From the NCBI GenBank assembly GCA_022560555.1, contig JADFSZ010000020.1:1-14543 (forward strand): a stretch of DNA of 14,543 nucleotides, given 5' to 3'. The notes under the pieces are model-generated. The model was not told the DNA's origin. It saw nothing but the letters and a program-made list of their open reading frames with translations, and did no database searches. This document shows, in pieces, positions 1 through 14,543 of the stretch. The first letter of the stretch is position 1. Each line of letters opens with the position of its first letter. The position numbers were made by a program, and so were the translations under genes. This DNA is from PVC group bacterium. Lineage in GTDB: Bacteria; GCA-001730085; JADFSZ01.

Positions 1-706
1 CAGCGCGAAATACTTTAAGAATCACTCCAAATGGAATATGCACATCGTCCAATATCGTATGTGCGGGAGGGGCCTTATAAAGGTCCCGGCGGATCGCATA
101 AAGCGCGCCTGTCGCGCCGAGCATAGAGTCAAACCGGGATTCAGATTTCCTCAAAAACTTTTCGTACCGCCAATACATATCCACGCCTTTGGCAAGCGAT
201 GACAAGTTGTCACGTTGAACAAACTCCAGTTCCCCGCTCACGCACCCAACAGCAGGATCCGCAAAATTATCAACAAGGTTACGAACAGCCATCGGATCCA
301 TCATCTCGGCTGCATCCGTAAAAACAATAATGTCCGAATTAAGCGATGACAAGGTTTTGTTAAGCGAGCACATTTTCCCTTCATTCTGTTCATACGCTAA
401 AAGTTTTATTCTGGAGTCCCTAAGAGCATATTCTTCGACAATCGCATGCGTTTGATCTGAAGATCCGTCCGAGGACACCACAAATTCAATTTGATCCCGG
501 GGATAGTCTATTTCCTGGCAATTGTTCAATTTATCCCTCATGACAAACTCTTCATTGTATACAGAAATCACTATAGATACTTTTTTTTGGATAAAGGCTT
601 TTTGAACGGGTCTTCCCGACAAACGTGAACAAACGAAAATCAATAGAGGGTATCCAAGGTAAGTGTATACGATAAATCCGAAGGCGAACCAAAAAAGCCC
701 TGTCAT
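1..706 (-). CDS. Glycosyltransferase family 2, membrane-anchored and synthase-like. Only the N-terminal ~235 aa are present; the gene runs off the window at position 1.
   Basis: Absent from the supplied ORF track because no stop codon falls in the window. Manual reverse-complement translation from the ATG at 706..704 gives MTGLFWFAFGFIVYTYLGYPLLIFVCSRLSGRPVQKAFIQKKVSIVISVYNEEFVMRDKLNNCQEIDYPRDQIEFVVSSDGSSDQTHAIVEEYALRDSRIKLLAYEQNEGKMCSLNKTLSSLNSDIIVFTDAAEMMDP...GATGALYAIRRDLYKAPPAHTILDDVHIPFG, and the frame stays open to position 2. It has an N-terminal hydrophobic helix and GT-A signatures (VSIVISVYNEE, SDGSSD, FTDAA at the DXD position, a later DD). The start overlaps the upstream stop as ATGA (703-706). 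Confidence 0.85.
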   Translation of the reverse strand, partial: MTGLFWFAFGFIVYTYLGYPLLIFVCSRLSGRPVQKAFIQKKVSIVISVYNEEFVMRDKLNNCQEIDYPRDQIEFVVSSDGSSDQTHAIVEEYALRDSRIKLLAYEQNEGKMCSLNKTLSSLNSDIIVFTDAAEMMDPMAVRNLVDNFADPAVGCVSGELEFVQRDNLSSLAKGVDMYWRYEKFLRKSESRFDSMLGATGALYAIRRDLYKAPPAHTILDDVHIPFGVILKVFRA

Positions 707-1488
707 GAGTCCGACCTCATGTGTTGAAAGCGCCGGTACAGTTTGTCATACCGCTTATGTCCGATGAGATTTTGAATCACTTTCTTAAATTGATCCTTTA
801 GACGATTTCTCCACATAATGCCGGGTTTCCTTCTTAGAATATTTTCGAGACAAGTAACACCTGTGTTCTTTCTTATGGCAATACGCGGGATATTAAGAAA
901 CGGTCCCCGGCTGATGTTATCTACAAATTGATATTGACTCGTAAAGATATACTCATATCCTGATTCAAGAGCGATGGTTTGCAGTTCGGGATGTTTTCGT
1001 CCCCCCGGAAGAGACAGCATTTTCACACTCACCGCTAAACGCTCCTCCAGAGTCCGACGGGACTCTTTAAGCTCCTCGGTCAATTCAGAAGTACTTAACA
1101 TGGAAAAAAATCTGTGCGTTAAACCATGGGATCCAATCCCCATCCCCGCGGCCGATATTTCAGCTAAATCCTGCCAACTCATATAACCCGCACAATCTAT
1201 ATGCTCAACGGTGACAAAGAAAACAGCCCGCAAACCACGTTCCTTTAAGATAGGATAAGCCTGAACATAATTATCTTTGTATCCATCATCAAACGTAATC
1301 ACAACGCTCCGGGCCTTTACCTGCTTGGGCCATTCATCCGGAAGCACAACATCCAGAGATTCCCGTTGAATAAGATCAAGATGCCTTAGGAACATCCCCC
1401 TCTCAACAGCATACTCCCTGTCGTAAAGAAGAAGATCGTTCATGCCTATGTGATGATACATCAAAACTGTCGAGCTTAATTTATTCAT
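703..1488 (-). CDS. Polysaccharide deacetylase (NodB homology domain, carbohydrate esterase family 4)
   Basis: 261-aa ORF with an ATG start at 1488. It carries NodB motifs: VITFDDGYKDNY (the TFDDG metal/catalytic Asp motif) and GSHGLTHR (the H-S/T-x-x-H motif). It sits 3 nt after the GT4 stop and overlaps the GT2 start. Confidence 0.9.
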   Translation of the reverse strand: MNKLSSTVLMYHHIGMNDLLLYDREYAVERGMFLRHLDLIQRESLDVVLPDEWPKQVKARSVVITFDDGYKDNYVQAYPILKERGLRAVFFVTVEHIDCAGYMSWQDLAEISAAGMGIGSHGLTHRFFSMLSTSELTEELKESRRTLEERLAVSVKMLSLPGGRKHPELQTIALESGYEYIFTSQYQFVDNISRGPFLNIPRIAIRKNTGVTCLENILRRKPGIMWRNRLKDQFKKVIQNLIGHKRYDKLYRRFQHMRSDS

Positions 1489-1491
1489 ATT

Positions 1492-2679
1492 CTACCCTGC
1501 AGCCTCTTGGTAGACACGGGCCATCTCACGCGCGATTTGCGCCCAATCGTATTTTTCTTCTACAAGCTTTCTCGCGCTTTCGGCTATCCGGAGATAATCA
1601 TCTTTGGATTGTGTCAACAAGGATATTTTTTCAATAAAAGCCTTTGGTGTATCGGCAAGCATAATTTCTTTTTTATCCTCTGCTTCAATTCCTTCGGCTC
1701 CGATCGTTGTGCTCACAACCGGACGACCCAGCGCCATCGATTCCAAAATTTTGATGCGCGTTCCTCCGCCGATACGAATAGGAACAATAAGAATGTCGGC
1801 ATCTAAGAAATACGGACGGATATCCTCCACGTTCTGATACACAGAAATTTTCTCATCCGCAAAATATGTCTTGAGCGAAGAATGGATTTTCCGTCCCACA
1901 ATGGAGCATGTCAACCGAGGTAGTGCTTGCGACAAGCTGCCCCAAATATCCGTAAAAAACCATTTCATCGCGTCAATGTTCGGCCACCAATCTAACGATC
2001 CGATAAAAACCAGTTGTTGAGGTTTTCTCGTATTCATTTGATACGCAAAATCACGGCAATTCACTCCATTTGACGCGACATGAACAGCCCCCTTATGGGA
2101 AAGTTTTTCCAAAAGATTTGCGTCTGTCAGGGAAACCGTGAATACAGCACGGAATTTGTCAATCCGCTCTTTTTCATAAGCCTTCATTTTTGAAGCCTGC
2201 CACTTCACAAAAAACTTCTTAAGGCCAAAAGGCAGCTTTTCACACAATCGCTCAGCAATAATATATTCCACATTATGCTCATCTAAGCAGGCAGGAATAT
2301 CAGGAACAAGATCAACATATTGAGCCATATGTATGTGGTCAAAATGAACAATATCATATTCTCCATCCCTGACTTTCGATTTTAGGACTTCACGCATTTT
2401 CGCGCAATCGTACTTCAAAACCACATACGGCTTTTTCGAAAAAAAAGACATGATCAGGCTCTCAAGCCGGTCCATCCAAGAATTCTTTCTTTTAACGCCG
2501 ATAATTTTCACCTTGCCCAAAAGTTTTTCAAACCCTTCAAGGGTCGCACGATGTCCGGCAAAACCGATCACAGAAACACTATGAAGCGCGCTGAGATTCT
2601 TTATATGGTTATACGTTCTGATTTTCGCGCCGGTATCTATGGGAAAGGGGATCTGAGGGACAACAAAAAGAATTTTCAT
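1492..2679 (-). CDS. Glycosyltransferase family 4 (GT-B fold, Glycos_transf_1 type)
   Basis: 395-aa ORF with an ATG start at 2679. The N-terminus MKILFVVPQIPFPIDTGAKIRTYN is typical of GT4. The C-terminal GGGTRIKILESMALGRPVVSTTIGAEGIE matches the E-x7-E nucleotide-sugar binding signature. Confidence 0.9.
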   Translation of the reverse strand: MKILFVVPQIPFPIDTGAKIRTYNHIKNLSALHSVSVIGFAGHRATLEGFEKLLGKVKIIGVKRKNSWMDRLESLIMSFFSKKPYVVLKYDCAKMREVLKSKVRDGEYDIVHFDHIHMAQYVDLVPDIPACLDEHNVEYIIAERLCEKLPFGLKKFFVKWQASKMKAYEKERIDKFRAVFTVSLTDANLLEKLSHKGAVHVASNGVNCRDFAYQMNTRKPQQLVFIGSLDWWPNIDAMKWFFTDIWGSLSQALPRLTCSIVGRKIHSSLKTYFADEKISVYQNVEDIRPYFLDADILIVPIRIGGGTRIKILESMALGRPVVSTTIGAEGIEAEDKKEIMLADTPKAFIEKISLLTQSKDDYLRIAESARKLVEEKYDWAQIAREMARVYQEAAG

Positions 2680-2699
2680 AAGCCGGTACTATTTTGATG

Positions 2700-3023
2700 T
2701 TATTTTAGCGAGTCTCCAATCCAACTCAGATAGGCCTCATGTCCGGCAATAATAGGTAAAAATAGTATTTCAGGAACTTCGTAGGAATGGACGAGACGTA
2801 CGGCTTCGACAATCTCTTCTTTTTTCTCTTCGATGGATTTCATAATAAGAAGATATTCATCGGCCTTATCAACATGGCCTTGCCACCAATACAGCGATTG
2901 CACGGGACCAACACGGTTTACGCAAGCAACCAGTTTTTTATCAAGAAGCATCCTTGAGATACTTTCAGCCTCTTCTCTTGTGGGAACCGTAACGTAACAA
3001 ACAACATATCCATTGACGGCCAT
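2700..3023 (-). CDS. cutA: Divalent-cation tolerance protein CutA
   Basis: 107-aa ORF. It aligns by eye with E. coli CutA: VTVPTREEAE...KLVACVN...SLYWWQG...YEVPEILFLP...YLSW. An SD-like GGTGTGAGGA lies directly upstream of the ATG at 3023. Confidence 0.9.
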   Translation of the reverse strand: MAVNGYVVCYVTVPTREEAESISRMLLDKKLVACVNRVGPVQSLYWWQGHVDKADEYLLIMKSIEEKKEEIVEAVRLVHSYEVPEILFLPIIAGHEAYLSWIGDSLK

Positions 3024-3033
3024 TCCTCACACC

Positions 3034-3486
3034 TTATTTTTGAAGGTTTGATAGCTGGGACGCCATTTCCATAATCTTTCGATCAAGAGTACTCGCCTCT
3101 TCGTTAAGGCGGTCAATCTCTTTTTCAGCGTCTAAAATAAGGACATTTTTTACCTTATCTCTTCGCCCCATAAGATCGTTGAGTTTTGTCCGAAGATTTT
3201 TGACTTGTATTTCATTCAGATCCGCCTTTATCAGATCCATTTCCTGACTTAACACGCGGATCTTTTGCTGAATGTCGCGAAGAAGCTGTTTTTTCTTCTC
3301 AAGCACCATCCGGTCTTCTTCAGAGAGATCTTCTGTTTTTCCGTCATAAATATTACTGATTTCTTTCTCCAAAATCTCCGCCTGTGTTTCGAGCCCCCCA
3401 ATTTCGGATTCTTTTAGCTTTACTTTCTCCTCCAAATTCTCCAAAGATTGAGCACTTTCATCTTCAACAATATTATCAAACGTCAT
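3034..3486 (-). CDS. Hypothetical acidic coiled-coil protein (150 aa)
   Basis: The ORF is rich in E, K, L and heptad-like periodicity throughout (LENLEEKVKLKESEIGGLETQAEILEKEISN..., LIKADLNEIQVKNLRTKLNDL...). I saw no enzymatic motif, TM helix or signal peptide. Its ATG (3486..3484) overlaps the gltX TGA (3485..3483) as ATGA. Confidence 0.7.
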   Translation of the reverse strand: MTFDNIVEDESAQSLENLEEKVKLKESEIGGLETQAEILEKEISNIYDGKTEDLSEEDRMVLEKKKQLLRDIQQKIRVLSQEMDLIKADLNEIQVKNLRTKLNDLMGRRDKVKNVLILDAEKEIDRLNEEASTLDRKIMEMASQLSNLQK

Positions 3487-4838
3487 CGCCTTTGCTCCCC
3501 ATCGTTAGCCTTGGTCTGAAATGATTTAATGAATTGCAATCCGTATGTCAGGTTTCTTTGGCATCGCTCGGGACCTAAAATCTCCATCACTAAAAAAATA
3601 CTCGGACTAACAGATTTGCCCGTTAAAACCACCCTTAAGGCCTGAAGAAAATCCCGGCTTTTAGTTGAATCATATTTATTGATAAGGGCTCTCGCGGAAA
3701 GCTCGATTTCCTTTGCATGAAACGGAACGATGCTCACTAACGCGTCTGAGACACATTCAATAAAGCCCTCAATCTCTCTATTAAACACTATTTTTTGGCA
3801 TGATGCAATATCATATTGAGGTTCATCAATAAAAAAATAATCCGAGCTTCTCGGCAAATCCTTCATGGTCTTCAGGCGTTCACGAATCAAGCCTATAACT
3901 TTTAGTAAATGCCCCTTGTCATAGGGCGGATCAACATATCCCAATTTGATCCATTCCGGAATAATGATGTTTGTCAGCTGATCTAAAGAACATGTTTTCA
4001 CATAATGAGCATTGATCCATTCGAGTTTTTTCATATCAAAAACAGCGCTCGACTTTCCGATGGCTTTAACCTTAAACTTTTTTATCATTTCAGCTTGTGA
4101 CATTATTTCCTGATTTCCTCCGGGCGACCAGCCTAACAGGCTTAGATAATTCAAGAGGGCTTCGGGCAATATGCCCTCTTTTTTGAAAGCCTCGACAGAA
4201 ACGGCACCATAGCGTTTCGACAAAACAGATCGGGCCTCATTCACAATCAACGGGAGGTGAATGTATTTTGGGGCCTGAAAACCGAGCGCCTTTCCAATGG
4301 CTAACTGTTTCGGTGTGTTTGACAAATGATCATCGCCGCGAAAAACATGTGAAATTGCCATCTCGTGGTCATCAACGGCACACGCAAAATTATACGTCGG
4401 AGTCCCGTCGGATTTCATAATGATAATCTCCGAAAACTCCGAGTTATCAAAAGCAACATCTCCTCTTAAGACATCCCGAACAATCGTTTTTCCCTGAGGA
4501 ACATGCAATACCACGGCCGTTTTTGAACCGTCACAGTATTCGGCCGAACCCATATCAAACAATTTCTCAACTTGCGTTCTATAAAGACTTTTTCTTTTTG
4601 ACTGAAATACCGGCCCCTCGTCCCAATCAAGTCCAAGCCACTGTAAGTGCTTGAGTATGTTCTCGGTTGACTTCCGGCTAGATCTCTCTTGATCCGTGTC
4701 CTCAATCCTGATGATAAAAACCCCGTCTTGGTTTCGCGCGTACAGCCAATTATAAATAGCTGTTCTGGCTCCGCCTATATGAAGCAGGCCTGTAGGACTG
4801 GGGGCAAATCGGACACGAACTGTCGCATCATTATTCAT
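3483..4838 (-). CDS. gltX: Glutamate--tRNA ligase (class I aaRS)
   Basis: It has the HIGH-type signature RVRFAPSPTGLLHIGGARTAIYNWLYAR and the KMSKS-equivalent VLSKR. I place the start at the ATG at 4838 (MNNDATVRVRFAPSPTG), which gives the usual short N-terminus. The track ORF extends to 4898, but that codon is TTG and adds 20 non-conserved residues. The true start is therefore 4838 (preferred) or 4898. Confidence 0.9.
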   Translation of the reverse strand: MNNDATVRVRFAPSPTGLLHIGGARTAIYNWLYARNQDGVFIIRIEDTDQERSSRKSTENILKHLQWLGLDWDEGPVFQSKRKSLYRTQVEKLFDMGSAEYCDGSKTAVVLHVPQGKTIVRDVLRGDVAFDNSEFSEIIIMKSDGTPTYNFACAVDDHEMAISHVFRGDDHLSNTPKQLAIGKALGFQAPKYIHLPLIVNEARSVLSKRYGAVSVEAFKKEGILPEALLNYLSLLGWSPGGNQEIMSQAEMIKKFKVKAIGKSSAVFDMKKLEWINAHYVKTCSLDQLTNIIIPEWIKLGYVDPPYDKGHLLKVIGLIRERLKTMKDLPRSSDYFFIDEPQYDIASCQKIVFNREIEGFIECVSDALVSIVPFHAKEIELSARALINKYDSTKSRDFLQALRVVLTGKSVSPSIFLVMEILGPERCQRNLTYGLQFIKSFQTKANDGEQRR

Positions 4839-4933
4839 GGATGCTTTTCCCACGCAAAACGCACATGGAGTGTGGCAATTTTCATCACGAAACTCCAATA
4901 AGATATAGACATTATGTTCATTCCAAGCTTTGT

Positions 4934-4963
4934 TATATAAATATCTTACGAGTTATATGTCAT
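4934..4963 (-). promoter_or_regulatory. Candidate sigma70-type promoter for gltX
   Basis: The minus strand reads ATGACA (4963..4958), an 18-nt spacer, then TATATA (4939..4934), about 95 nt upstream of the ATG at 4838. Identified by hexamer match only, in an AT-rich gap where such matches arise by chance. Confidence 0.3.
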
Positions 4964-5006
4964 GCGGCCGAATCTTTGGCACATGTTTTGCACGTAACAA
5001 ACACCT

Positions 5007-5078
5007 AAACCGGAGCACTTAGATTAGAGGTTTCCCCTGACGCACCCTAACGCCTCAACCCCTAAGTCTCCGGTTTTT
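5007..5078 (-). terminator. Long imperfect hairpin downstream of ftsA, a possible intrinsic terminator or structured RNA
   Basis: Arms aaaccggagcacttag (5007-5022) and ctaagtctccggttt (5062-5076) are reverse complements apart from one bulged base. The inner segments (cttagattagagg and cctcaacccctaag) can extend the helix with G-U pairs and bulges, leaving an apical region of about 22 nt. On the minus-strand RNA the stem is followed by UUUAGGUGUUUGUU. On the plus strand it is followed by TTTTT (5074-5078). Confidence 0.4.
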
Positions 5079-5097
5079 CATGAAAGCCCGTGCTCCA

Positions 5098-6342
5098 TCA
5101 AAACAAATCACGAAACCAATTTACGACATCATCGCCCCACTGAGACAATCTATTTTTTCGGCGGAACAAAAAGTCACCGCGATTGTTTTGTAAATCAAGC
5201 GCGTATTTAGCGACCCCGATAATGGTCGCATAGCACGGATTACGGATAATCGTATCTAGGCCAATAATATTATGCCCGCTTCCAACACGAACGTAAGTCT
5301 CGAATTCTTCAGCCGCTAAATCCTTAATCCCGCGAATCAAGGCTCCCCCTCCTGTTAAAATCACTCCCGAATTTAAATTTTTATTTAAATGATTTTTTTC
5401 TAATTTTTTGTGAATACTGCAAAAAACCTCTTCTCCCCAACTTTTTATTACACGGCAAAATTCCAGTTTATTAAAAACCGTCGGCGAACTTCGTGAATTC
5501 AAATTAATCGAAACAACTTCAGATTCACTGATATGATCAAGAGCAACATTCGAAAATTTTCTCTTTGTATCTTCGGCCATATCCCGCGTTAACCGGAACT
5601 GGCTTGATATCCTTTCCGTCAAATCATCCCCTCCCATCGGAAGAATTTCCGAATAAGTCAAAAATCCGTTTTGAAAACAGGTGATCGTGGTTGTCCCGGC
5701 ACCCAAATTAATCACAACACTTCCCAATTCGCGCTCTTCAGATGTGGTCACGATTTGAGAACATGCCAAGGCTCCAAAAACAAGCTCCCGGATTTCAACA
5801 CCCGTCCGCTGCACAGCTTTAATCAGATTTTGAATAGGATTGGTTGAAGCCGTGATGACATGAACACAAGCTTCAATCGTGTCCGCCCTCATACCAAAAG
5901 GATTCCGTACTCCCTGCATACCGTCAACGGCAAACCCACGCAGCACAGTGTGTATGATTTCCCGATTATCCGGAAGTGGAACCTGGTTGGAGAGATGGAT
6001 CGCTTGATTAATGTCCCTGTAGGTAACTTCTTGATGACTGTTATCCAGATGGTAATGTCCGGAATTGTTCACCCCCACAATATGCGGCCCGTTCACAGTT
6101 AAATACACAGCTTCCGTTTCAACTCCGGCTAAATCCTCGGCTTCTTCAAGGGAACAAATGACAGCGTTAACAACATCATCCATATCAATGACGATGCCTT
6201 GCTTCACGCCTCGTGAATCCGTTGCCCCCGTTCCAAGAATATTAACCTGACCATTCTCGTCTTCAAACGCGATAATACTGTAGACGGTGTTAGATCCGAT
6301 ATCAATCCCGGCAACGTATTTCCGTGTATGTTTCGTTCGCAC
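5098..6342 (-). CDS. ftsA: Cell division protein FtsA (actin/HSP70-fold ATPase)
   Basis: 414-aa ORF. Motifs include the phosphate-1 motif VAGIDIGSNTV, NLGAGTTTIT, and GVILTGGGALIRGIKDLAAEEF (FtsA-type adenosine motif). The C-terminal amphipathic segment DDVVNWFRDLF resembles the FtsA membrane-targeting helix. The start is GTG at 6342..6340, preceded by AGGAG with an 8-nt spacer. Confidence 0.9.
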   Translation of the reverse strand: MRTKHTRKYVAGIDIGSNTVYSIIAFEDENGQVNILGTGATDSRGVKQGIVIDMDDVVNAVICSLEEAEDLAGVETEAVYLTVNGPHIVGVNNSGHYHLDNSHQEVTYRDINQAIHLSNQVPLPDNREIIHTVLRGFAVDGMQGVRNPFGMRADTIEACVHVITASTNPIQNLIKAVQRTGVEIRELVFGALACSQIVTTSEERELGSVVINLGAGTTTITCFQNGFLTYSEILPMGGDDLTERISSQFRLTRDMAEDTKRKFSNVALDHISESEVVSINLNSRSSPTVFNKLEFCRVIKSWGEEVFCSIHKKLEKNHLNKNLNSGVILTGGGALIRGIKDLAAEEFETYVRVGSGHNIIGLDTIIRNPCYATIIGVAKYALDLQNNRGDFLFRRKNRLSQWGDDVVNWFRDLF

Positions 6343-6350
6343 CCGTAAAG

Positions 6351-6355
6351 CTCCT
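6351..6355 (-). promoter_or_regulatory. Shine-Dalgarno sequence of ftsA
   Basis: Plus-strand ctcct corresponds to AGGAG on the minus strand, 8 nt upstream of the GTG start at 6342. It is the strongest SD in the window. Confidence 0.6.
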
Positions 6356-6362
6356 AACCTTT

Positions 6363-6857
6363 TTATTTCCCCAAAAGACCGCGCTCCTGAAACTCCCGGA
6401 TTCGAGACGCGAGCGATCGGCGAAATTCAACTAAATTATCCTGAACGATACTCATTTCTGCTCGACTCATTCTTCGCTTCTTCGTCTTAGGGATAAATGA
6501 GTCGTACATAAGAGCTCCGTCCTCCAATATCCGCTCATGACGCGGATAATAATTTTTAAGCGTCCGCAACTCCTTGCCCGCGCGTCTCAAAAAACCAGCA
6601 TCTCGTTTTAAGTTATTTCCAAAATTTTTCTCCAATTCCCCCTGATAATATTTCCAGCGATTCACATGCTCGCTTTTCTCTCGATCCTCTTGGGTATAAG
6701 GCATTCTAATCTTCACCTGTTGTTTGGGAATAATTTTTTTCTTCTTACTCGCTGCCGCTTTACGGCCCCTGTACGCGCAAGCATGATTTGGAGCTACCAT
6801 CATCGCGAGCAAGACAAAAAGGAATAGCATCAGTATAGTTCGGGTTTTTCTAGTCAT
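6363..6857 (-). CDS. Hypothetical secreted, highly basic protein (164 aa)
   Basis: The N-terminus MTRKTRTILMLFLFVLLAMMVAPNHACA-YR has the n/h/c regions of a Sec signal peptide and an AxA-type cleavage site. The mature part is K/R-rich (AAASKKKKIIPKQQVKIR, KTKKRRMSR) and I recognise no motif in it. Its ATG at 6857 overlaps the upstream gene's end (6850) by 8 nt. Confidence 0.7.
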   Translation of the reverse strand: MTRKTRTILMLFLFVLLAMMVAPNHACAYRGRKAAASKKKKIIPKQQVKIRMPYTQEDREKSEHVNRWKYYQGELEKNFGNNLKRDAGFLRRAGKELRTLKNYYPRHERILEDGALMYDSFIPKTKKRRMSRAEMSIVQDNLVEFRRSLASRIREFQERGLLGK

Positions 6858-8337
6858 CGTTCTCTTCCTTCATCTGCGACTCGATTCTTTTTATCCCGTT
6901 TTTATCAAGAACAAGACGCAAACGGCGATATTGATTTCTTTCCTTGGCGCAAAACCTTAAAACGATGTTGACATGATACACGCGCTTGCCGGGTATAACT
7001 TGATAGTCCTCGTCATTGAGAACATAAATGTCCGTCACAGGGTCATCCATATATTTAAGCAAATAAGCCACGTTAAATCGCATAATATCCGAGAGGCCGA
7101 AAACAGGGTATCCTTTTTTGGGGATTCTTTTAGAATACAAGCGAATAACTTTTTGGTAAGTTAAAATGTTTTCTCCGTTTGCTTCGTTATCCATCGACGT
7201 GATATGATCCATATTCCGAATACGCAAAATCTCGGCGGGAACATCCTTTCGCCTGACAAAACGAAACATTTCCGAACATACCCCGAGTCGTCCCCGCTTT
7301 TTCAGGTCATAGATAAACGTGCGGATATCATAGAAGCGAGTGATAAATTTATTCTGGATATAATTTCTCATAAAATCTTTCAAACGATCCTTAAACATAT
7401 ACCCGACAACAAGCGCGATAAAGAAAGGCAGGGTAAAATCACCGTATTTTTTCTGGAATAAAAACGCGATAACCGTCGCGACAATCATGGCACATCCCGC
7501 GGCAACGGCATACGCGGCTTCTTTGGCAATTTTAGGCTCTTTGATACTGCGAATCGTTAAAAACAAAATATTGGATATGTGCTTTTTTAAAACACTTCGT
7601 CGGAAGATAAGCTGCTCATTATCTCCGTTTACATCCGGGGCCAGCGGATAGCCGGAATCTTTCCGGTAGCTTATCTCAGAACGTAATAAATCCATAATGG
7701 GCCCTTTAACTTTCAAACAGTCGGATTTTTTTGTATTTTCAACCAGCCGGACTAATCGGTAGGAATACTCTTCCACAAGATAGCTGACATATTCGTCCGT
7801 GTATTGAAGCATCTGTTTCATATGCCGCGTACGCACAATACGTTTATCCAAGTCATGTTTCAGAAGACGCCATACATGCAATATTTTTTTAATTTGACGC
7901 GCATAATTTGCGGCCTCCTCTGTCTCAATTTCTTTATGCCTATCTCGAAGACCCTCAACATAATCTCTAAGCGTACTTTTCATGATACAACCGAACATTT
8001 TAATGTGATACTCCAAAGCATCCGTAAGATTGTCCTGCATTTCCAATTCCTGCCATTGACCCAAAATGAGCAGCGGGCTTGCGGATGAAGTCAGGATATC
8101 CCCCATCGTCATCTTTGGGGTTTTAAATCTGATATACCCGTGCACATCATTGATAAAATCGGTTTTCTTGTACGTGGCTTGGTTAATATTTAAATGATAG
8201 GGAATAAAAAAGAAGGCATCAACTTGATATGAAGTCACTTTTTCATGAGAATTGAGAGGGTAATCAATTTTAATCTCAAACTGATTTCGGTCATGAACCC
8301 GTATAGATGCATCCTTAAAAAACTCTTGCGCAATCAC
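6850..8337 (-). CDS. Hypothetical membrane protein (495 aa) with a central two-TM hairpin flanked by large soluble domains
   Basis: Long uninterrupted ORF with a GTG start at 8337..8335; there is no in-frame ATG for about 75 codons. The two hydrophobic helices are AAYAVAAGCAMIVATVIAFLF and FTLPFFIALVVGYMF (aa ~274-315, nt ~7393-7518). The ~270-aa N-terminal region looks helical. The ~175-aa basic C-terminal region looks beta-rich (VYHVNIVLRF, RLRLVLDKNG). I could find no Walker, HExxH, GxSxG or other catalytic motif. Confidence 0.75.
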   Translation of the reverse strand: MIAQEFFKDASIRVHDRNQFEIKIDYPLNSHEKVTSYQVDAFFFIPYHLNINQATYKKTDFINDVHGYIRFKTPKMTMGDILTSSASPLLILGQWQELEMQDNLTDALEYHIKMFGCIMKSTLRDYVEGLRDRHKEIETEEAANYARQIKKILHVWRLLKHDLDKRIVRTRHMKQMLQYTDEYVSYLVEEYSYRLVRLVENTKKSDCLKVKGPIMDLLRSEISYRKDSGYPLAPDVNGDNEQLIFRRSVLKKHISNILFLTIRSIKEPKIAKEAAYAVAAGCAMIVATVIAFLFQKKYGDFTLPFFIALVVGYMFKDRLKDFMRNYIQNKFITRFYDIRTFIYDLKKRGRLGVCSEMFRFVRRKDVPAEILRIRNMDHITSMDNEANGENILTYQKVIRLYSKRIPKKGYPVFGLSDIMRFNVAYLLKYMDDPVTDIYVLNDEDYQVIPGKRVYHVNIVLRFCAKERNQYRRLRLVLDKNGIKRIESQMKEENDD

Positions 8338-8372
8338 TTTTGATTATCCCGGTCTGCTTTAGTTAAACATAA

Positions 8373-8406
8373 ATTGCATTATATCACTGCAGGGTCATAA
8401 TGCAAT
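8373..8406. repeat. Perfect 10-bp inverted repeat with a 14-nt spacer
   Basis: attgcattat (8373-8382) and ataatgcaat (8397-8406) are exact reverse complements separated by atcactgcagggtc. One arm contains the -35 hexamer above and the other overlaps the -10 hexamer. Confidence 0.8.
8378..8405 (-). promoter_or_regulatory. Candidate sigma70-type promoter for the 495-aa gene
   Basis: The minus strand reads TTGCAT (8405..8400), a 16-nt spacer, then a consensus TATAAT (8383..8378), about 40 nt upstream of the GTG at 8337. It lies in the 90-bp gap after the GT-C-like gene. Confidence 0.45.
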
Positions 8407-8427
8407 GCCTTGGTGCAGCAGCAACGC

Positions 8428-10206
8428 CTATTTCCTTGTCGAATTGATTTTTTTCTCGATGGTATCCAAAAGTTTTTTTGCTTTTTCATACTCCGGTGCT
8501 AGAGCATGCGCTTTTTCAAAATATGATTTGGCAAGATTAACATCTTGATGATTGAGCCAATAAATCCCGAGGTTCACATAGGCCCCTACATAATACGGGT
8601 CCACCTTTAGGGCTCGTTCCCATAAAACTTTTGCCTCTTGCCCAGAACCATCTAAGGCCATCTCGACACCCTTTTCCGTCAGACTTCTCGCGCTCCAGCC
8701 CCAAAAGGGGGTCTGCCGTTTCCTAAGAATAATGTCCGGCGTAATGAATCCGAGTTCAACACATCTCGTAATGAGTGAATCCTTCCAATCCCAAAGCCGC
8801 TCGGGCTTCTTGTCAATGTCAACAGGACTGCTGTTCCATCTTCCGATTTCAAACGAGAAGGCCCCGACAGCCTGTACGGCAATGGAAAAAATAACACAGA
8901 AAATAAAAATATATTTTAAATATTTTTTCGCGAAAATATCATGGATGACAAAAACGAAAAAGAAGCATATCAACGGAAGTAAATCGGCAGAATATCTTAA
9001 GCCAAACGACCAACCGGCCCACCACGCATGAAAACGACTGTACCAGAGAAAGACAATCGCAAGCGCAACTATCAATATTCGATAAAACAAAACCCCCTTT
9101 TTCCAGGCCCGTACCATCCCCCACACGGAAAAAATCAGAAACGGTGTAAACAAAAAAACCCCCCGGCTCGGGCTTACGAATATCCCCAAAAGACCTTTCA
9201 GCATGTTTCCCGACATCACACTTTTTCCTCCCAAATTATATAGTGTAGCTGTCGCGCCCGTTTCGGACATGAGCTTTCGGTATCCGCCCAAAACTGAGTC
9301 AAAATAGATCATGTTATAGATCAAATAGGGCAAAACGGTTATCAAAAACGCGCCCAAAATCCAAAACGACTTTTTCTTATAATTCCACATGAGGTAAGGA
9401 AGCCATATCAAAGCAATCAAAAAATCATTCGGCCGAGACATCACAGCGCAGGCCAAAGCAACACCAACCCACGGCAATAAGCCGACTTTGCCGTCTTTAA
9501 CCTGAAGTGTTAACAAGAGGGATAAACATAAAAATAACGCGCTCGGTCCATGCTGCCAAGCGGCTTGAGAACTAATCGCCCATGTTAATGTCCCAAAGGC
9601 ATATATCAGAGCCAAAAACACAGCGTATCTAAGAGGGACGTAAAGAGTAAAGATATAAAACAAGAGAACGACCGAAACGGAAACCCAAAAACTTGCGCTA
9701 AATTTTGCCAGGAGATCCACCACGGGCCGATTGATGGGATCAAGCCCCTTCATAAGAGGAAGAATATAAAATGGCGTGTTGATGATGCCGGGGAATACCG
9801 GCGAACTTGAAACAACATGCCCCCGGCCTCTTTGGATAAAATAGGGCAGTTCTTTTTCTTCGGCATCCCAAAGAAAATCAAACTCATCTAAATCCAAATT
9901 AAATTCTTTCAAAATCGATATCGGAATATACCGATTAGGAACCGTATCGTTTCCGCTATACTCTCTGAGGTTGATATTATAAACAACAAGGCATAATAGA
10001 AATAAAATAAGTCCCCATTTTTTCCGGCAGCGTACGTTCGGACGGGGCAACCGGAAGGTGTCCGTACGCGATGGAACGCAAGCCTTACGATAGGCGTGAA
10101 CATCTTTATGAGAACAATTCAAAACTCTTGCCATTTGGCGAACGGACTTGTTCTGATAGTGGTCCTCAATATACTTTTTGTCTTGCTTATTTAATTCACG
10201 TGACAT
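8428..10206 (-). CDS. Polytopic membrane protein: N-terminal HTH-like segment, ~12-TM GT-C-fold-like (ArnT/PMT-type) core, and C-terminal TPR repeats
   Basis: 592-aa ORF with an ATG start at 10206. Residues 5-42 (LNKQDKKYIEDHYQNKSVRQMARVLNCSHKDVHAYRKA) follow the sigma70-region-4/LuxR-type HTH pattern. About 12 hydrophobic helices follow, with an acidic first loop (SGNDTVPNRY...DLDEFDFLWDAEEKE), as in GT-C enzymes. The C-terminus GQEAKVLWERALKVDPYYVGAYVNLGIYWLNHQDVNLAKSYFEKAHALAPEYEKA is a clear TPR. The GT-C assignment rests on architecture and the loop motif only. Confidence 0.75.
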   Translation of the reverse strand: MSRELNKQDKKYIEDHYQNKSVRQMARVLNCSHKDVHAYRKACVPSRTDTFRLPRPNVRCRKKWGLILFLLCLVVYNINLREYSGNDTVPNRYIPISILKEFNLDLDEFDFLWDAEEKELPYFIQRGRGHVVSSSPVFPGIINTPFYILPLMKGLDPINRPVVDLLAKFSASFWVSVSVVLLFYIFTLYVPLRYAVFLALIYAFGTLTWAISSQAAWQHGPSALFLCLSLLLTLQVKDGKVGLLPWVGVALACAVMSRPNDFLIALIWLPYLMWNYKKKSFWILGAFLITVLPYLIYNMIYFDSVLGGYRKLMSETGATATLYNLGGKSVMSGNMLKGLLGIFVSPSRGVFLFTPFLIFSVWGMVRAWKKGVLFYRILIVALAIVFLWYSRFHAWWAGWSFGLRYSADLLPLICFFFVFVIHDIFAKKYLKYIFIFCVIFSIAVQAVGAFSFEIGRWNSSPVDIDKKPERLWDWKDSLITRCVELGFITPDIILRKRQTPFWGWSARSLTEKGVEMALDGSGQEAKVLWERALKVDPYYVGAYVNLGIYWLNHQDVNLAKSYFEKAHALAPEYEKAKKLLDTIEKKINSTRK

Positions 10207-10234
10207 GGATCAACTCTTCACCCATAAGTTGGCA

Positions 10235-10780
10235 TTATCTATTTCTCTTCGGGAGACCTTTTTTCTTGAGGAATAATCTGTTTGAGTTATGATCGATAAA
10301 ACCGTCATATTTTGACAAAACATCCTCACCTAAGATACCGGCTACGCCCGGCCTTCTGTTTTGGAAAGGATCCGGAATAATCCAAATCCTAAATTTTCCC
10401 AGAAAAACATTCTCACCCAATACAAAATCATTAATGATCGCCCCCAGGCCTGTCGTCTGCCCGGAGATACCGGAAAAGACGGCCTTGCGTCCGGTCAGTA
10501 TCACATCATACTTTTCTTGCGCGCTGCTGGAAAGAACGGATGATGTTGCCCCTGTATCCAAAAGAAATTTTGTTTTATGCCCGTTAATCGACACATTTAA
10601 AAAAAAGGCGTTCCCATCTTTTTCGAGAGGAATTTCGACATAATCACGCGTCGAAATCCTTAAGCTTTGATGCCCGCCGAAACCAGCCTCAGCAGAATGA
10701 GAAAACAGCACACACTGAAACACAAAACAAAAGAGGACATCATAAATCAAAACACGACAATGGTTTGATTTGTTAAACAT
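10235..10780 (-). CDS. Secreted retropepsin-like (clan AA) aspartic protease
   Basis: 181-aa ORF with a hydrophobic N-terminus ending SHSAEA-G, which is signal-peptide-like. It has the catalytic motif FLLDTGATSSVLS (D-T-G-A) after VSINGHKTK, and the downstream GILGEDVLSKY...RLFL typical of bacterial single-domain retropepsins (gag-polyprotein-like aspartyl protease family). The start lies 2 nt after the upstream stop. Confidence 0.85.
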   Translation of the reverse strand: MFNKSNHCRVLIYDVLFCFVFQCVLFSHSAEAGFGGHQSLRISTRDYVEIPLEKDGNAFFLNVSINGHKTKFLLDTGATSSVLSSSAQEKYDVILTGRKAVFSGISGQTTGLGAIINDFVLGENVFLGKFRIWIIPDPFQNRRPGVAGILGEDVLSKYDGFIDHNSNRLFLKKKGLPKRNR

Positions 10781-10782
10781 AT

Positions 10783-12900
10783 CTAAATCCTTTCTCCGGT
10801 AAAAGGGTTGAATCGATAATGCGCAAACAGATACCAGATGGTCGGAGCTACCGCAAGTTTATCGTCGGATAAAGCCCACCCGCCGTAAGCCGGCGTCCCC
10901 GCGTTACTCGCTTGAGGCAGGGCCAAAGTTGAACGATAATTTTGACTTTCTGTTAACGCACTTTCTACTTCCTTCAAATAATACGCGCCTTCAGATTCGC
11001 GAGCCACAGAAAAATAAGCAAGAGCCATCTGCGCTGTGCCCTCAAACCAAACGGTATCCTTGTCAGGATAAGGACCGTCAGCATACGTCGCGCCAAAATC
11101 AAATCCATCCACCCAAACACCTTTCAAAGAATAATATTTCTGATTTCGGCTTTTCTTTACGGCAAAATCTAAGGTTTCATTATAATCGCTGCCAAGAACA
11201 AGAACGGCCCAACTTGAAACATCCGTTGCATAATTCAAATCATTCTCACCCAAATTAAACCGATTTTCATGCTCGTTCCAAGCCACATTTTTCAGCCATT
11301 GGTGAACTTTTGATGCCGCGTTTTCAAATCTTTTTTCATGTGTTAATGCAGCCAATCCCTTGAGAGCCGCATAACAATCCAAGTTATGTTCCGTACTCGT
11401 CCATGGCATTTTCTTCTTCCTTGTTTCATATCCTCCGGTAATACCACCGTTATCTTTTTGTAAACCACGGAGCCAATCGGCAATCTCTTGGGCAAGATTC
11501 ATATATTTTTTGTCCTGAGTCGCCCGGGTATAATACGTAATCGCCATAAGCAGCCACGCGTTCGGTCCGGCCGCTTTCTTTTGATCGGACCAACCGTTCG
11601 TTCGATAAAAATCGGAAAACCCGTTAAAACGCCCAAACTTCTCTATTTGCTCATCCAATGCATCGTAATAAAAATTCAATATCTGACGCGCCTTAGGTAA
11701 TTGCCCGGTCAAGACATATAGCATTCCCCCCAAAGCCTGATCATAAGTATAACAATCCACGCTCCCTTCATAATTCGCAATAAGAGGGTATGCTTCCTCC
11801 ATCCATGCGGCTCTTGACTGATGCTGCGCCATGATCCAGTCAAATGTTTTCTTTGCATAAAAATTTGATGGTTTTAAATCCTTTAGAACATCCGCATCCC
11901 TCCCTTCATTCCGCTGAGGCCACAAAGATACAAAATCGACTGCATGTATTTTGGATTTTGAGGCTACACTAGATTTGTCCAACACAAGCTCCCCTCCCTG
12001 TTTTAACCCAAGAACAATCTTCGTGTCGTTTTCACGAACAATATCTCCAACCAAGCGGTTGCCGTTAGACAGGATAATTTCATCAATCGTCTCTAGGGAG
12101 AGCTCCTCATGGGCACTATCCCCAAGCAAATCTTTTTTAAGACCGATCAGTTCAGTGTCGATTTGTGTCATGCGCGCCGCAAGTTCAATTTTTTCCTGAT
12201 GAATATATTCAATCGTTTTTTCTAACTCAAGCTCCTTTTCCTGAAAATACAAAATTTGAGCTTGAAGCAACTGAAACGAATCACTGTCACTCTCGCTCAA
12301 GCTCAGGGCCTCTTGCTCGGTTTTGTTAATGTGCTCTCTTAATTGCTCCAGCTCTTTTATTTGAATGGATGAGCTGTACTCTAAAGCAGCATAATTCTTT
12401 TCTACGGAACCTTTTTTCTGAATGAGAACGGATATCTCTCCTTCAAGACCCCGAATACGATCCTGATATTTACCTACATATATGGCTGACACAATGACAC
12501 TTAAAATAAAGAAAATAGAAACGGCCGCGAGTCCATATCGATACCAGCGACGTCTTTTGGCAAATTGCCATAAACGCCGGCTGTACTCAGGCCGTATGTT
12601 TTGATATTCGATACCCATTAAAAGAGCGTCTTTAGAGGACAGCCAACGGATGATCCCGCTCGCTTTAATCGTCCCCCGGCCATGATCATCAATTTCCAAA
12701 TTGACAGTTTGACCTATGCCGAAGTCCAAAGGGTCAAAAGCTTTCAGCTCAAGACAAAGGCCGGTTTTACTGATGTTTTGGGTAAATCCTTGGATAAAGA
12801 GGGATTCTTTTGTGGACTTTGACAAGGGAAAATAGAAAATGCCGACAGGGAAAACAGTATCCATTCGTACATACTGCCGCTTGTCCTCGGGCTTCATCAT
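10783..12900 (-). CDS. PilZ domain / TM helix / coiled coil / small beta segment / C-terminal (alpha/alpha)6-toroid glycosidase-like domain protein (705 aa)
   Basis: Both PilZ c-di-GMP motifs are present: RQYVR (RxxxR, aa 8-12) and NISKTG (D/NxSxxG, aa 42-47). The TM helix YGLAAVSIFFILSVIVSAIYVG (aa ~122-143) is preceded by KRRRWYR. Heptad-rich sequence spans aa ~145-260. The C-terminal ~360 aa has repeated helical-hairpin signatures (YDQALGGMLYVL, GPNAWLLMAITYY, WTSTEHNLDCYAALKGLA, ATDVSSWAVLVLG, FEGTAQMALAYF, VAPTIWYLFAHY) reminiscent of six-hairpin glycosidase, epimerase or lyase folds. Its ATG overlaps the cysS TGA as ATGA (12897-12900). Confidence 0.85.
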   Translation of the reverse strand: MMKPEDKRQYVRMDTVFPVGIFYFPLSKSTKESLFIQGFTQNISKTGLCLELKAFDPLDFGIGQTVNLEIDDHGRGTIKASGIIRWLSSKDALLMGIEYQNIRPEYSRRLWQFAKRRRWYRYGLAAVSIFFILSVIVSAIYVGKYQDRIRGLEGEISVLIQKKGSVEKNYAALEYSSSIQIKELEQLREHINKTEQEALSLSESDSDSFQLLQAQILYFQEKELELEKTIEYIHQEKIELAARMTQIDTELIGLKKDLLGDSAHEELSLETIDEIILSNGNRLVGDIVRENDTKIVLGLKQGGELVLDKSSVASKSKIHAVDFVSLWPQRNEGRDADVLKDLKPSNFYAKKTFDWIMAQHQSRAAWMEEAYPLIANYEGSVDCYTYDQALGGMLYVLTGQLPKARQILNFYYDALDEQIEKFGRFNGFSDFYRTNGWSDQKKAAGPNAWLLMAITYYTRATQDKKYMNLAQEIADWLRGLQKDNGGITGGYETRKKKMPWTSTEHNLDCYAALKGLAALTHEKRFENAASKVHQWLKNVAWNEHENRFNLGENDLNYATDVSSWAVLVLGSDYNETLDFAVKKSRNQKYYSLKGVWVDGFDFGATYADGPYPDKDTVWFEGTAQMALAYFSVARESEGAYYLKEVESALTESQNYRSTLALPQASNAGTPAYGGWALSDDKLAVAPTIWYLFAHYRFNPFTGERI

Positions 12901-14441
12901 AATTGCATACTTGAGATAAGCTCGCTCATTTTTTGATGTGAATTATCCGCTCGCTCCGAGTAAGACGCGACAGTATAATGTTTATCTTCGCCGACTCCCG
13001 GCTTTTTATCTTCGATATCCATATCCGGAAATAATTTTACAAGCTCGTCTCGGATGTCATCAGCCCGATTCCAGTTTTTATCGTCTTTCGCACGGAGACG
13101 CATTTCAAGAAGTTGTCGAATTCCCTCTTTGAGTGGATCCTGACACACAACATCACTTACCACAATAATGCGCCCCGATTGAAATATATTGAGAATTTTT
13201 GACGCTTCATTAAAAAACCCAAATCCCTGTTTTACAAGCAAATATGTGTTTTTAGTGACACTCTCTGCCAAAATTTGATTGAGATCACGAATCAAAGAGA
13301 ACAAAACCCCGATGGCTTTGGGTGTATTAAAATCATCATTCATGGCCGCGGAAAATTCCTCATGATATTTTTTAATCTCCCCAACACGATCGCGAACTTG
13401 TGAATCCATAGAACAGGTGCGCTCAAGATACACTTGCACGTTTTTACTAAATTCATACCCGCGCTTGATCTGCTCATGAATGCCTTCGATCTGCTCGAGA
13501 GAAAAATCGATCGGGCTCCTATAATGCGTGGCCATAATAAAGAATCTTATATCCTCTGGCGGGTATTTTTTAAATAGTTCTGTAAGGGAAAAATAATTTT
13601 TGAGCGATTTGGACATTTTCTTTTTTTCGACGTTGACAAAACCGTTGTGAAGCCAATATTTCGCAAAAAGTTTTTTTGAGCATCCTTCCGACTGAGCGAT
13701 CTCGTTTTCATGATGGGGAAAGGTCAGATCCATTCCGCCTCCATGGATATCAAACGAAACGCCCAGATAATGCGTGGCCATGGCCGAACATTCAATATGC
13801 CACGCGGGCCGGCCCGCTCCCCACGGGCTTTCCCATGAAGGCTCCTGGGGCTTTGCTTTCTTCCACAAGACAAAATCGAGAGGATCTCTCTTTTTCCTAT
13901 CTTTCTCAACACGCGCGCCAATCAAAAGGTCATCGAGATTCTTCTTGGATAATTTACCGTAGGCATGAAATGTTTTTACGGAAAAATACACGTCTCCGTC
14001 AACATCATAAGCCATCTCCTTGCGGATGAGATCCCCTATCATCTCTTGCATGTGTTGAATATGTTCCGTGGCTTTTGGATAATGATCCGCCCGGGCGACA
14101 CCTAAAGCATCCATTTGGGAAAAATAAAGATTTGTATATTTTTCAGTGATCGCTTTTGTGTGCTCAATAAGGGACATTTTTTTATTTTTTTCATGTTCTG
14201 TAACAGCCTTTTTAATAATTTTATCATCGATATCCGTAAAATTCTGGACATAAGTCACCTTGTAGCCAAGATGCCTTAAGTATCGACGCATCATGTCAAA
14301 GGTCACATAAACTCTGCCGTGACCTAAATGACACTCATCATAAACAGTAACACCACACACATACATCCGCACGTGATCAGATTCTATTGGCTCGAAAATC
14401 TCTTTTTTACGCGCCAACGTATTATAAACGTAGAGACTCAT
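12897..14441 (-). CDS. cysS: Cysteine--tRNA ligase (class I aaRS)
   Basis: 514-aa ORF with an ATG start at 14441. Motifs include the HIGH region MYVCGVTVYDECHLGHGR, the zinc/cysteine-binding region GRPAWHIECSAMA, HGGGMDLTFPHHENEIAQSE, and KMSKS (KKKMSKSLKNY). Confidence 0.95.
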   Translation of the reverse strand: MSLYVYNTLARKKEIFEPIESDHVRMYVCGVTVYDECHLGHGRVYVTFDMMRRYLRHLGYKVTYVQNFTDIDDKIIKKAVTEHEKNKKMSLIEHTKAITEKYTNLYFSQMDALGVARADHYPKATEHIQHMQEMIGDLIRKEMAYDVDGDVYFSVKTFHAYGKLSKKNLDDLLIGARVEKDRKKRDPLDFVLWKKAKPQEPSWESPWGAGRPAWHIECSAMATHYLGVSFDIHGGGMDLTFPHHENEIAQSEGCSKKLFAKYWLHNGFVNVEKKKMSKSLKNYFSLTELFKKYPPEDIRFFIMATHYRSPIDFSLEQIEGIHEQIKRGYEFSKNVQVYLERTCSMDSQVRDRVGEIKKYHEEFSAAMNDDFNTPKAIGVLFSLIRDLNQILAESVTKNTYLLVKQGFGFFNEASKILNIFQSGRIIVVSDVVCQDPLKEGIRQLLEMRLRAKDDKNWNRADDIRDELVKLFPDMDIEDKKPGVGEDKHYTVASYSERADNSHQKMSELISSMQL

Positions 14442-14543
14442 GGGATAATGATTGAGGGTTAGTGTAAAGGATTTTTAAGATATGGGAACCAATGGGTCTA
14501 TCCATAACCTTTGATACTATTTTTCATCAAACGAACCAATACG

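Follow-up and report, generated by a model that had tools for sequence, protein, structure and literature searches.

A predicted PilZ receptor joined across the membrane to a toroid of probable glycan-active type in a PVC group bacterium

Introduction

Can cyclic diguanosine monophosphate (c-di-GMP), acting through a single polypeptide, control glycan chemistry outside the cytoplasm? To our knowledge, PilZ effectors have their partners in the cytoplasm or embedded in the membrane, examples being glycosyltransferases, flagellar stators, pilus ATPases, and transcription factors. The question is raised by a gene in a 14,543-nucleotide stretch of DNA from a PVC group bacterium (GenBank assembly GCA_022560555.1, contig JADFSZ010000020.1, positions 1 to 14,543), which is called the window throughout. 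The gene begins with ATG and lies at 10783..12900 on the minus strand, as do all features given below. Its translation of 705 residues comprises an N-terminal PilZ domain, one transmembrane (TM) helix, a long stalk, and a C-terminal (alpha/alpha)6 toroid. An earlier note on this DNA, made from the letters alone, had reported an open reading frame (ORF) at these positions and had left its strand unstated. The ORF exists; the plus-strand translation is full of stops and non-coding. Each structural element that the note had proposed, namely the PilZ domain, the TM helix, the stalk, and the toroid, was tested and upheld.

We lean, with somewhat better than even confidence, towards reading this protein as an inside-out c-di-GMP effector, in which a PilZ domain in the cytoplasm is coupled via the TM helix and the stalk to a glycan-active enzyme in the periplasm. 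Such a protein is probably an undescribed way for c-di-GMP to act on the cell envelope. What is new here, as judged from sequence and structural models, is a predicted PilZ effector whose extracytoplasmic, enzyme-like output belongs to an unclassified toroid family. The pattern at 10783-12900 is not a product of chance, as the toroid has relatives in 1341 sequence clusters and many species have the architecture in its entirety.

A canonical-type PilZ module

The PilZ domain spans residues 7-113 (12562..12882) and is matched there by Pfam PF07238 with 37.7 bits (gathering score 22.5, E 2.7e-9). The earlier note had called the domain intact on account of two motifs, and both can be read: RxxxR as RQYVR at residues 8-12 (12865..12879) and D/NxSxxG as NISKTG at residues 42-47 (12760..12777). 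In an 18-sequence alignment of N-terminal modules (A4), R8, R12, P18, and G47 are invariant, and RxxxR is present in 38 of 39 PilZ-type relatives. A family hidden Markov model (HMM) was built from the N-terminal modules of these 39 relatives with the window protein left out; the window protein scores 72.5 bits against it and is therefore a member of the specific PilZ subfamily found in its relatives.

The AlphaFold2 model has seven strands in a barrel over residues 10-100, followed by a helix from residue 104, with block means of the predicted local distance difference test (pLDDT) of ~50-85 in this part. The closest solved relative of the family profile is YpfA/MotI of Bacillus subtilis (5vx6, E 1.2e-6), with both motifs aligned; the NISKTG-type motif of the family pairs with NISAGG of MotI, and RRQYVR of MotI is aligned to the family RxxxR. 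Unlike the window protein, MotI is soluble, consists of two domains, and acts on the flagellar stator, having neither a TM helix nor a periplasmic domain. On the strength of the family HMM, RxxxR, (D/N)xSxxG, and the modelled barrel with its C-terminal helix, the module is classified as a canonical-type predicted c-di-GMP receptor.

One membrane helix and a long stalk

Residues 122-143 (12472..12537) form the only strongly hydrophobic stretch of the protein, with the highest hydropathy (Kyte-Doolittle mean 2.6 over 19 residues), and a TM helix is found at the same place in 40/40 PilZ-type proteins. On its N-terminal side lies the basic cluster KRRRWYR (residues 115-121, 12538..12558), from which the earlier note had deduced that the PilZ domain is inside and the rest outside. 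The flanking charges follow the positive-inside rule: the window protein has a net charge of +6 before the helix and 0 after it, and the family means over the 40 PilZ-type proteins are +4.3 and +1.8, respectively. The predicted topology is N-in and C-out, with the toroid in the periplasm. The extracytoplasmic position of the toroid is independently backed because its relatives without PilZ bear signal peptides, CBM56, CBM11, dockerin, LysM, or type IX secretion system (T9SS) sorting domains.

The stalk, a heptad or coiled-coil region of ~115 residues in the earlier note, was assigned to residues 145-260 (12121..12468) by its heptad score and by the AlphaFold2 helix that runs from residue 104 to about 260. 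It consists of two segments, 145-197 and 206-260, separated by SLSESDSDS, and proline is absent from residues 145-265. A consistent a/d register is kept over residues 129-191 and another over 206-254. The mean fraction of Leu, Ile, Val, and Met at a/d positions is 0.58, compared with 0.449 +/- 0.037 in shuffled sequences, and one of 500 shuffles reaches 0.58. Within the family, the linker between TM helix and toroid measures 98-212 residues (median 139), and a helical linker of ~139 residues would extend about 20 nm, comparable to the width of the periplasm.

The linker of the window protein is the longest of the family because of a lineage-specific insert at residues 263-341 (11878..12114), which is an alignment gap in all other PilZ-type homologues. 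The beta-like segment of the earlier note, ILSNGNR...DKSSV, is present within it at residues 276-312 (11965-12075); its fold did not find confirmation, as the whole insert is modelled at pLDDT < 50. A Pfam search of residues 258-345 gave no match, and a sub-threshold match was obtained to NCBIfam NF047433, the N-terminal domain of Leptospira LA_0442/LA_0875 (21.8 bits, cut-off 43).

An (alpha/alpha)6 toroid with a candidate active site

The remaining residues, 345-705 (10786..11868), had been described as ~360 residues with the helix-hairpin pattern of (alpha/alpha)6 barrels. This was examined with AlphaFold2, run on residues 330-705 with a 29-sequence alignment, and with Foldseek. The model (pLDDT 92.4; predicted template modelling score 0.92) is a barrel of 12 helices in six hairpins, in which long loops precede helices 2, 4, 6, 8, 10, and 12 and short turns follow them. 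When compared with the PDB, it gave 381 matches at E <= 1e-3, with (alpha/alpha)6 enzymes at probability 1.0, and the best 50 of the 381 are all carbohydrate-active (alpha/alpha)6 proteins with TM-scores of 0.5-0.7. These neighbours support a toroid that is predicted to be periplasmic and glycan-active.

The best match is the methylmannose polysaccharide hydrolase MmpH (7qsj; E 1.4e-9, TM-scores 0.66/0.71, 12% identity, root-mean-square deviation 5.2 Å). It is followed by glucose, cellobiose, and N-acetylglucosamine (GlcNAc) 2-epimerases, YihS, glycoside hydrolase (GH) family 76, the GH15 isomaltose glucohydrolase, CPF_2247, and dextran dextrinase. MmpH is a 12-helix barrel decorated at one end by short beta-hairpins, with an acidic central cavity (PMC9883506). 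The 12-helix (alpha/alpha)6 barrel is common to the window toroid, MmpH, and hydrolases of the GH15/GH125 type; in view of the low identity, the large deviation, and an E-value of 0.8 for the family profile, the match to MmpH is one of fold only.

Conservation was counted over 145 diverse, near-full-length toroid members, 37 of which are of the PilZ type. Four residues are invariant among the 145: Y386 (11743..11745; motif YDQAL, where inner helix 2 begins), G445 (motif GPNAW; G445-P446 at 11563..11568), E504 (11389..11391; motif STEHNLD, where inner helix 6 begins), and D560 (11221..11223; motif ATD, where inner helix 8 begins). E620 (11041..11043; motif EGTxQM, where inner helix 10 begins) is kept in 144/145 members (99%), and D387 in 92%; in the 37 PilZ-type members, Y386, D387, G445, E504, D560, and E620 each reach 100%. 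All conserved motifs are found where the six long loops lead into the N-termini of the even-numbered, inner helices, and it is at that end of the helices that six-hairpin enzymes (GH15-type barrels) build the funnel of the active site. A conserved tyrosine together with three carboxylates, predicted to lie at the mouth of the barrel and with E504, D560, and E620 as candidate catalytic residues, makes a plausible candidate active site. The earlier note had named the conservation of catalytic acids as a check on its proposal, and the proposal gains from these counts.

An unclassified family of extracytoplasmic toroids

An exhaustive HMMER search over 50%-identity clusters collected 1341 clusters of toroid relatives at E <= 1e-3 and 610 at E <= 1e-10. 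Going by these searches, the toroid family is large, is without a Pfam model, and is without a solved relative that sequence can detect. Members without PilZ carry signal peptides, and relatives are fused to four CBM56 carbohydrate-binding modules (CBM; 150.7 bits), CBM11, dockerin, LysM, Fn3 or Ig domains, or T9SS tails. The closest secreted homologues of the window toroid (44-46% identity) are proteins of ~590 residues that consist of the toroid and a C-terminal domain of ~190 residues. In two unrelated metagenome-assembled genomes, their genes lie directly upstream of genes for LacI-family regulators (L011 9647-10669; L020 9631-10686). These features point to an extracytoplasmic family of putative carbohydrate-active enzymes that is unclassified at present. 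Also seen near the L011 and L020 homologues are genes for a GH2-like/tetratricopeptide repeat (TPR) protein and a CBM30-like protein, together with PEP-CTERM/exosortase genes.

The earlier note had expected that a structural search would name the six-hairpin family to which the toroid belongs. The fold was confirmed and no specific family could be assigned; toroid-type Pfam matches (GH76, GH127, GH88, C5-epimerase, and Prenyltrans) are all sub-threshold. GH76 was considered in particular and rejected, as its Pfam matches are partial and borderline and its catalytic Asp-Asp is replaced by an invariant Gly-Pro. The window protein has no match to the GH76 model PF03663 at E <= 1, and weak partial matches occur in 8/11 and 2/29 relatives of two relative sets. 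Those of P0016 and P0008 reach 28.8 and 26.0 bits against a threshold of 25.9 and cover ~115 of 366 model positions. In GH76, the catalytic pair is formed by adjacent aspartates, Asp124/Asp125 in BcGH76 (PMC8362039). An alignment of P0016 with the GH76 structure 6u4z, weak as it is (E 0.016), pairs YDDNVW with iGPNAW, and GH76 is excluded because the Asp-Asp pair aligns with the invariant G445 and P446. The window toroid, as modelled, shares the fold of GH76 and lacks its adjacent aspartates. NCBI calls P0016 (MDD5066326.1) a 'glycoside hydrolase family 76 protein'; the match behind this name is partial and barely exceeds the threshold, the catalytic Asp-Asp of GH76 is missing from P0016, and the name is probably an over-annotation. 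In sum of structure and sequence searches, the toroid has a predicted six-hairpin fold yet fits no curated family.

Distribution of the architecture and origin of the window copy

The PilZ-TM module is found at the N-terminus in 38 of the best 150 of the 50%-identity clusters. A search of GTDB species representatives gave 532 stretches that code for relatives. Of the best 80, 61 can be aligned along the whole protein, from about residue 1 to about residue 700, with 24-30% identity, which puts the architecture in at least 61 species. Candidatus Omnitrophota is the label of nearly all of them, and the rest bear the coarse 'uncultured Planctomycetia'. Because the fusion is kept in at least 61 species representatives and 38 of 150 clusters, it is under selection and not an assembly artefact.

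Source names for the architecture are limited to 'PilZ domain-containing protein' and 'hypothetical protein'. Full-text literature searches returned no description of a PilZ-toroid or PilZ-glycosidase fusion, and the survey of PilZ architectures by Galperin and Chou makes no mention of a PilZ-toroid fusion. The suggestion that this is not a described class of c-di-GMP effector therefore stands in a sharper form: the architecture is common in Omnitrophota yet uncharacterised in the literature found. Omnitrophota are reported to encode GGDEF domains and small pilZ genes (bioRxiv 10.1101/2023.11.21.568195). Searches for other outputs with the PilZ-TM module alone and with an 18-sequence profile returned nothing useful, and an exact look-up of the window protein in the assembly collection found it not on record.

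The window copy has a mixed character. Its toroid is 44-47% identical to secreted toroids without PilZ and 24-33% identical to other PilZ-type toroids, and a neighbour-joining tree sets it apart from the clade to which the other 37 PilZ-type toroids all belong. This fits a module shuffle, in which the family's PilZ module would have been joined to the toroid of a normally secreted subfamily. A second assembly, GCA_022561295.1 (also 'PVC group bacterium'), has a contig (L086) that is 97.4% identical to window positions 9654-12429 and carries the same downstream genes. The protein deposited from it, P0001, has 578 residues and lacks PilZ and TM helix because the first 254 nt of the contig (1-254) are unrelated; these 254 nt are likely an assembly break or chimera, so that P0001 would not be a real PilZ-less variant.

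Proposed mechanism and points that weigh against it

What the analysis shows is which domains are present, that the motifs are intact, the modelled fold, the signals of topology, and how far the family is conserved and spread among taxa; from these parts we infer c-di-GMP binding, catalysis, a glycan as the substrate, and a signal that runs from inside to outside. The protein would be a bitopic protein of the inner membrane whose PilZ domain binds c-di-GMP in the cytoplasm. Binding of c-di-GMP to the PilZ barrel and the N-terminal RxxxR arm would shift the packing or oligomeric state of the C-terminal helix of PilZ. As this helix is predicted to run into the TM helix, the change could be relayed along the coiled-coil stalk and could alter the activity, access, position, oligomeric state, or reach of the periplasmic enzyme. 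Cleavage or modification of envelope or matrix glycans would then track the c-di-GMP level of the cell. Inside-out signalling of this kind would resemble that of Alg44 or LapD.

Several observations weigh against this account. In the PilZ module, the second motif departs from [DN]x[ST]xxG in 12 of 39 PilZ-type relatives, and those read by eye (for example HNIGKEG in P0005, HDIGRGG in P0006, and P0010) are [DN]xGxxG, with Gly for Ser. A W-x-P-R at the cytoplasmic face, ahead of the TM helix, is conserved in most relatives, and because of it a rigid transmission from helix to helix is not guaranteed; the window protein reads WYRYG at this place. The toroid has no close structural relative, the highest TM-scores being only 0.66-0.71 at 12% identity. 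Neither the full protein nor the 29-member toroid profile found anything below E 0.1 among PDB sequences, and Pfam/NCBIfam searches with the toroid of the window protein returned no family above threshold. Alpha/alpha toroids also include proteins that do not act on glycans, and weak sub-threshold prenyltransferase and thioester domain (TED) matches were seen. As for the surroundings, a comparison of 11 window neighbours with 85 homologous loci found no conserved linkage, the sole match being one GT4 glycosyltransferase in one locus. The window neighbours do not make up an operon for polysaccharide export, and no linked gene for a synthase or for export was seen in the window or in the homologous loci examined.

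A bolder extension of the effector reading, which we consider less likely than not, is that PilZ, TM helix, and stalk make up a portable inside-out module that has been joined at least twice in Omnitrophota to different subfamilies of an unrecognised GH-like family, with cytoplasmic c-di-GMP directly switching or positioning a periplasmic or cell-surface glycan-cleaving enzyme ~20 nm from the inner membrane. If this were true, both a new class of c-di-GMP effectors and a new GH family would be at hand, and the system could control how these ultra-small, possibly predatory bacteria remodel their envelope or matrix or attack host cells.

A PilZ domain fused across the membrane to a periplasmic enzyme-like domain would extend c-di-GMP control directly to extracytoplasmic glycan chemistry, and the protein, being a single polypeptide, would make it simple to study how PilZ passes signals through the membrane. 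The toroid family, with 1341 clusters, an invariant Tyr, Glu, and Asp, and a near-invariant Glu, is a candidate for a new CAZy family. As to its bearers, the architecture is characteristic of Omnitrophota; this phylum is both widespread and uncultivated, and hardly anything is known about the biology of its envelope.

Known systems and alternative readings

The protein resembles Alg44 in topology and LapD in logic, and each likeness brings an alternative with it. Like Alg44, the alginate co-polymerase of Pseudomonas aeruginosa, it is predicted to have an N-terminal cytoplasmic PilZ domain of canonical type with RxxxR and D/NxSxxG, a C-terminal PilZ helix that leads to the membrane, a single TM helix, and a periplasmic C-terminal part with a coiled-coil element. 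Unlike Alg44, it has an (alpha/alpha)6 toroid as its periplasmic output in place of an HlyD/membrane-fusion protein (MFP) domain, for which neither Pfam nor NCBIfam gave a match in the window protein. Nor is there an alg8-like synthase or alginate operon nearby, and the phylum is a different one (Omnitrophota/PVC). The earlier note had proposed just such an Alg44-type layout with the MFP domain replaced; the N-in, C-out arrangement of PilZ and TM helix is borne out, and neither the MFP domain nor the synthase operon was found.

Alg44 acts as a scaffold. By analogy, the toroid could be constitutively active or could merely bind, and PilZ, without gating it, would recruit or assemble the protein in a c-di-GMP-dependent manner into a larger envelope machine, for instance one that secretes polysaccharide or sits at the cell surface. 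We regard this as unlikely, though it is the best of the alternatives. It is favoured by the shared layout, as Alg44 works within a complex, and by the neighbourhood conserved in the main Omnitrophota clade of PilZ-type proteins, which suggests partners. Here, 26 of 42 loci have a gene, in the same orientation and no more than 2.5 kb upstream, for a lipoprotein of ~790 residues with TPR, DUF3857, and a transglutaminase core, the 42 being the PilZ-type GTDB loci with enough upstream sequence. A TPR protein of ~130 residues without a signal peptide is found in 15 loci and an M48 membrane peptidase in 10 (example loci are L001 6108-9999 and L004 7229-10008). The transglutaminase, TPR, and M48 neighbours are all absent from the window. 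Against a scaffold, synthase and export genes are unlinked in the window and in the homologous loci examined, and the strict conservation of three carboxylates favours catalysis.

Signalling in the opposite direction is less probable still. In this alternative, the toroid would be the sensor of a periplasmic glycan, which it would bind or slowly turn over, and would pass the signal inward; PilZ would engage a cytoplasmic target only when glycan and c-di-GMP coincide. PilZ is known as a C- or N-terminal add-on to transmembrane sensors such as chemoreceptors, and long coiled-coil stalks are typical of signal-transducing receptors. We know of no PilZ domain with enzymatic output, which counts against the sensor; moreover, the catalytic-looking residues of the toroid are the same as in its freely secreted, CBM-bearing relatives, and the only conserved cytoplasmic partner seen is the small TPR protein, which belongs to the other clade.

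LapD has been shown to relay the binding of c-di-GMP in the cytoplasm to a periplasmic output (PMC3032553, PMC3032545), a logic that the inside-out effector, with its predicted binding, would share. In the main Omnitrophota clade, the likeness to the LapD system extends to a neighbour, the lipoprotein with a transglutaminase fold. Unlike the window protein, LapD has a receptor of degenerate EAL/GGDEF domains with HAMP and a periplasmic binding module, and there is no sequence relationship; Pfam/NCBIfam found no EAL, GGDEF, HAMP, or LapG-binding domain in the window protein, in which the enzyme-like output is fused directly to the receptor.

A LapD-like mode of action, in which the periplasmic part would bind or release a protease according to c-di-GMP, or the protein itself would be cleaved from its stalk, is accordingly given little credence. 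The protease of the LapD system, LapG, is a cysteine protease of the transglutaminase-like type, and this is what lends weight to the transglutaminase-core lipoprotein gene upstream in 26 of the 42 loci as a protease candidate in the main clade. In the window, the candidate would be a putatively secreted retropepsin-like (clan AA aspartic) protease encoded 2 nt after the stop, as it also is in L086. Speaking against the idea, there is no homology to the periplasmic domain of LapD or to LapG, the two kinds of protease neighbours are mutually unrelated, and the enzyme-like conservation of the toroid would be left unexplained.

Least credible of all is a toroid that binds prenyl or terpenoid compounds, or is LanC-like or thioester-domain-like, and acts on envelope lipids or peptides: it can draw on sub-threshold matches to Prenyltrans (4/29 members, best E 9e-7), squalene-hopene cyclase repeats, and TED, and on an LQxxDGGIxGG repeat that we presume to resemble the QW-type toroid repeat of prenyltransferases and squalene-hopene cyclases, and it is countered by the best 50 of 381 structural matches, all glycan-active, by a family that bears CBM56, CBM11, dockerin, and LysM and adjoins LacI sugar regulators, and by a sequence devoid of the CxEQ thioester motif. 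Prenyltransferase and the alpha-2-macroglobulin TED were rejected as primary readings on the same grounds of CBM fusions, structural matches, and the missing CxEQ.

For the inside-out effector itself, parallels are offered by BcsA-PilZ with BcsZ (GH8), and by the alginate system with AlgL (polysaccharide lyase family 5, PL5; AlgL is mentioned in PMC8829089), in which a PilZ receptor and a periplasmic alpha/alpha-toroid enzyme that cleaves glycans serve one pathway. In those systems, receptor and toroid are separate proteins and PilZ gates a glycosyltransferase, whereas here both are found in one polypeptide with no linked synthase.

Gene neighbourhood in the window

All large ORFs of the window share the minus strand, its base composition is uniform without the sign of an island, and tRNA and Rfam features are absent from it. 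The neighbours of the PilZ-toroid gene are cysS, the retropepsin-like protease gene, a gene for a GT-C-like membrane protein, and ftsA. The PilZ-toroid gene shares 4 nt (ATGA) with the end of cysS (12897-14441, minus strand), its start overlapping the cysS stop, and the next gene begins 2 nt past its own stop. Such an overlap hints that it is co-transcribed or translationally coupled with the gene for a housekeeping tRNA synthetase.

The gene after the stop (10235-10780, minus strand) encodes the aspartic protease, which has 181 residues, a DTG motif, and a hydrophobic N-terminus that reads like a signal peptide. L086 has this gene pair as well, and the protease gene may share an operon with the PilZ-toroid gene.

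Further downstream, two genes lie between the GT-C-like gene and ftsA, and their products had no family match in Pfam/NCBIfam: a protein of 495 residues with internal hydrophobic segments (6850-8337, minus strand) and a basic protein of 164 residues with a hydrophobic N-terminal stretch (6363-6857, minus strand). The GT-C-like gene itself (8428-10206, minus strand) encodes a multi-pass membrane protein of 592 residues with a soluble N-terminal segment of ~60 residues and C-terminal TPR. It weakly matches the Leptospira LA_3751/LA_3752 family of putative GT-C-like glycosyltransferases (23 bits, cut-off 200), and, as a putative GT-C-like protein, could make a periplasmic glycan.

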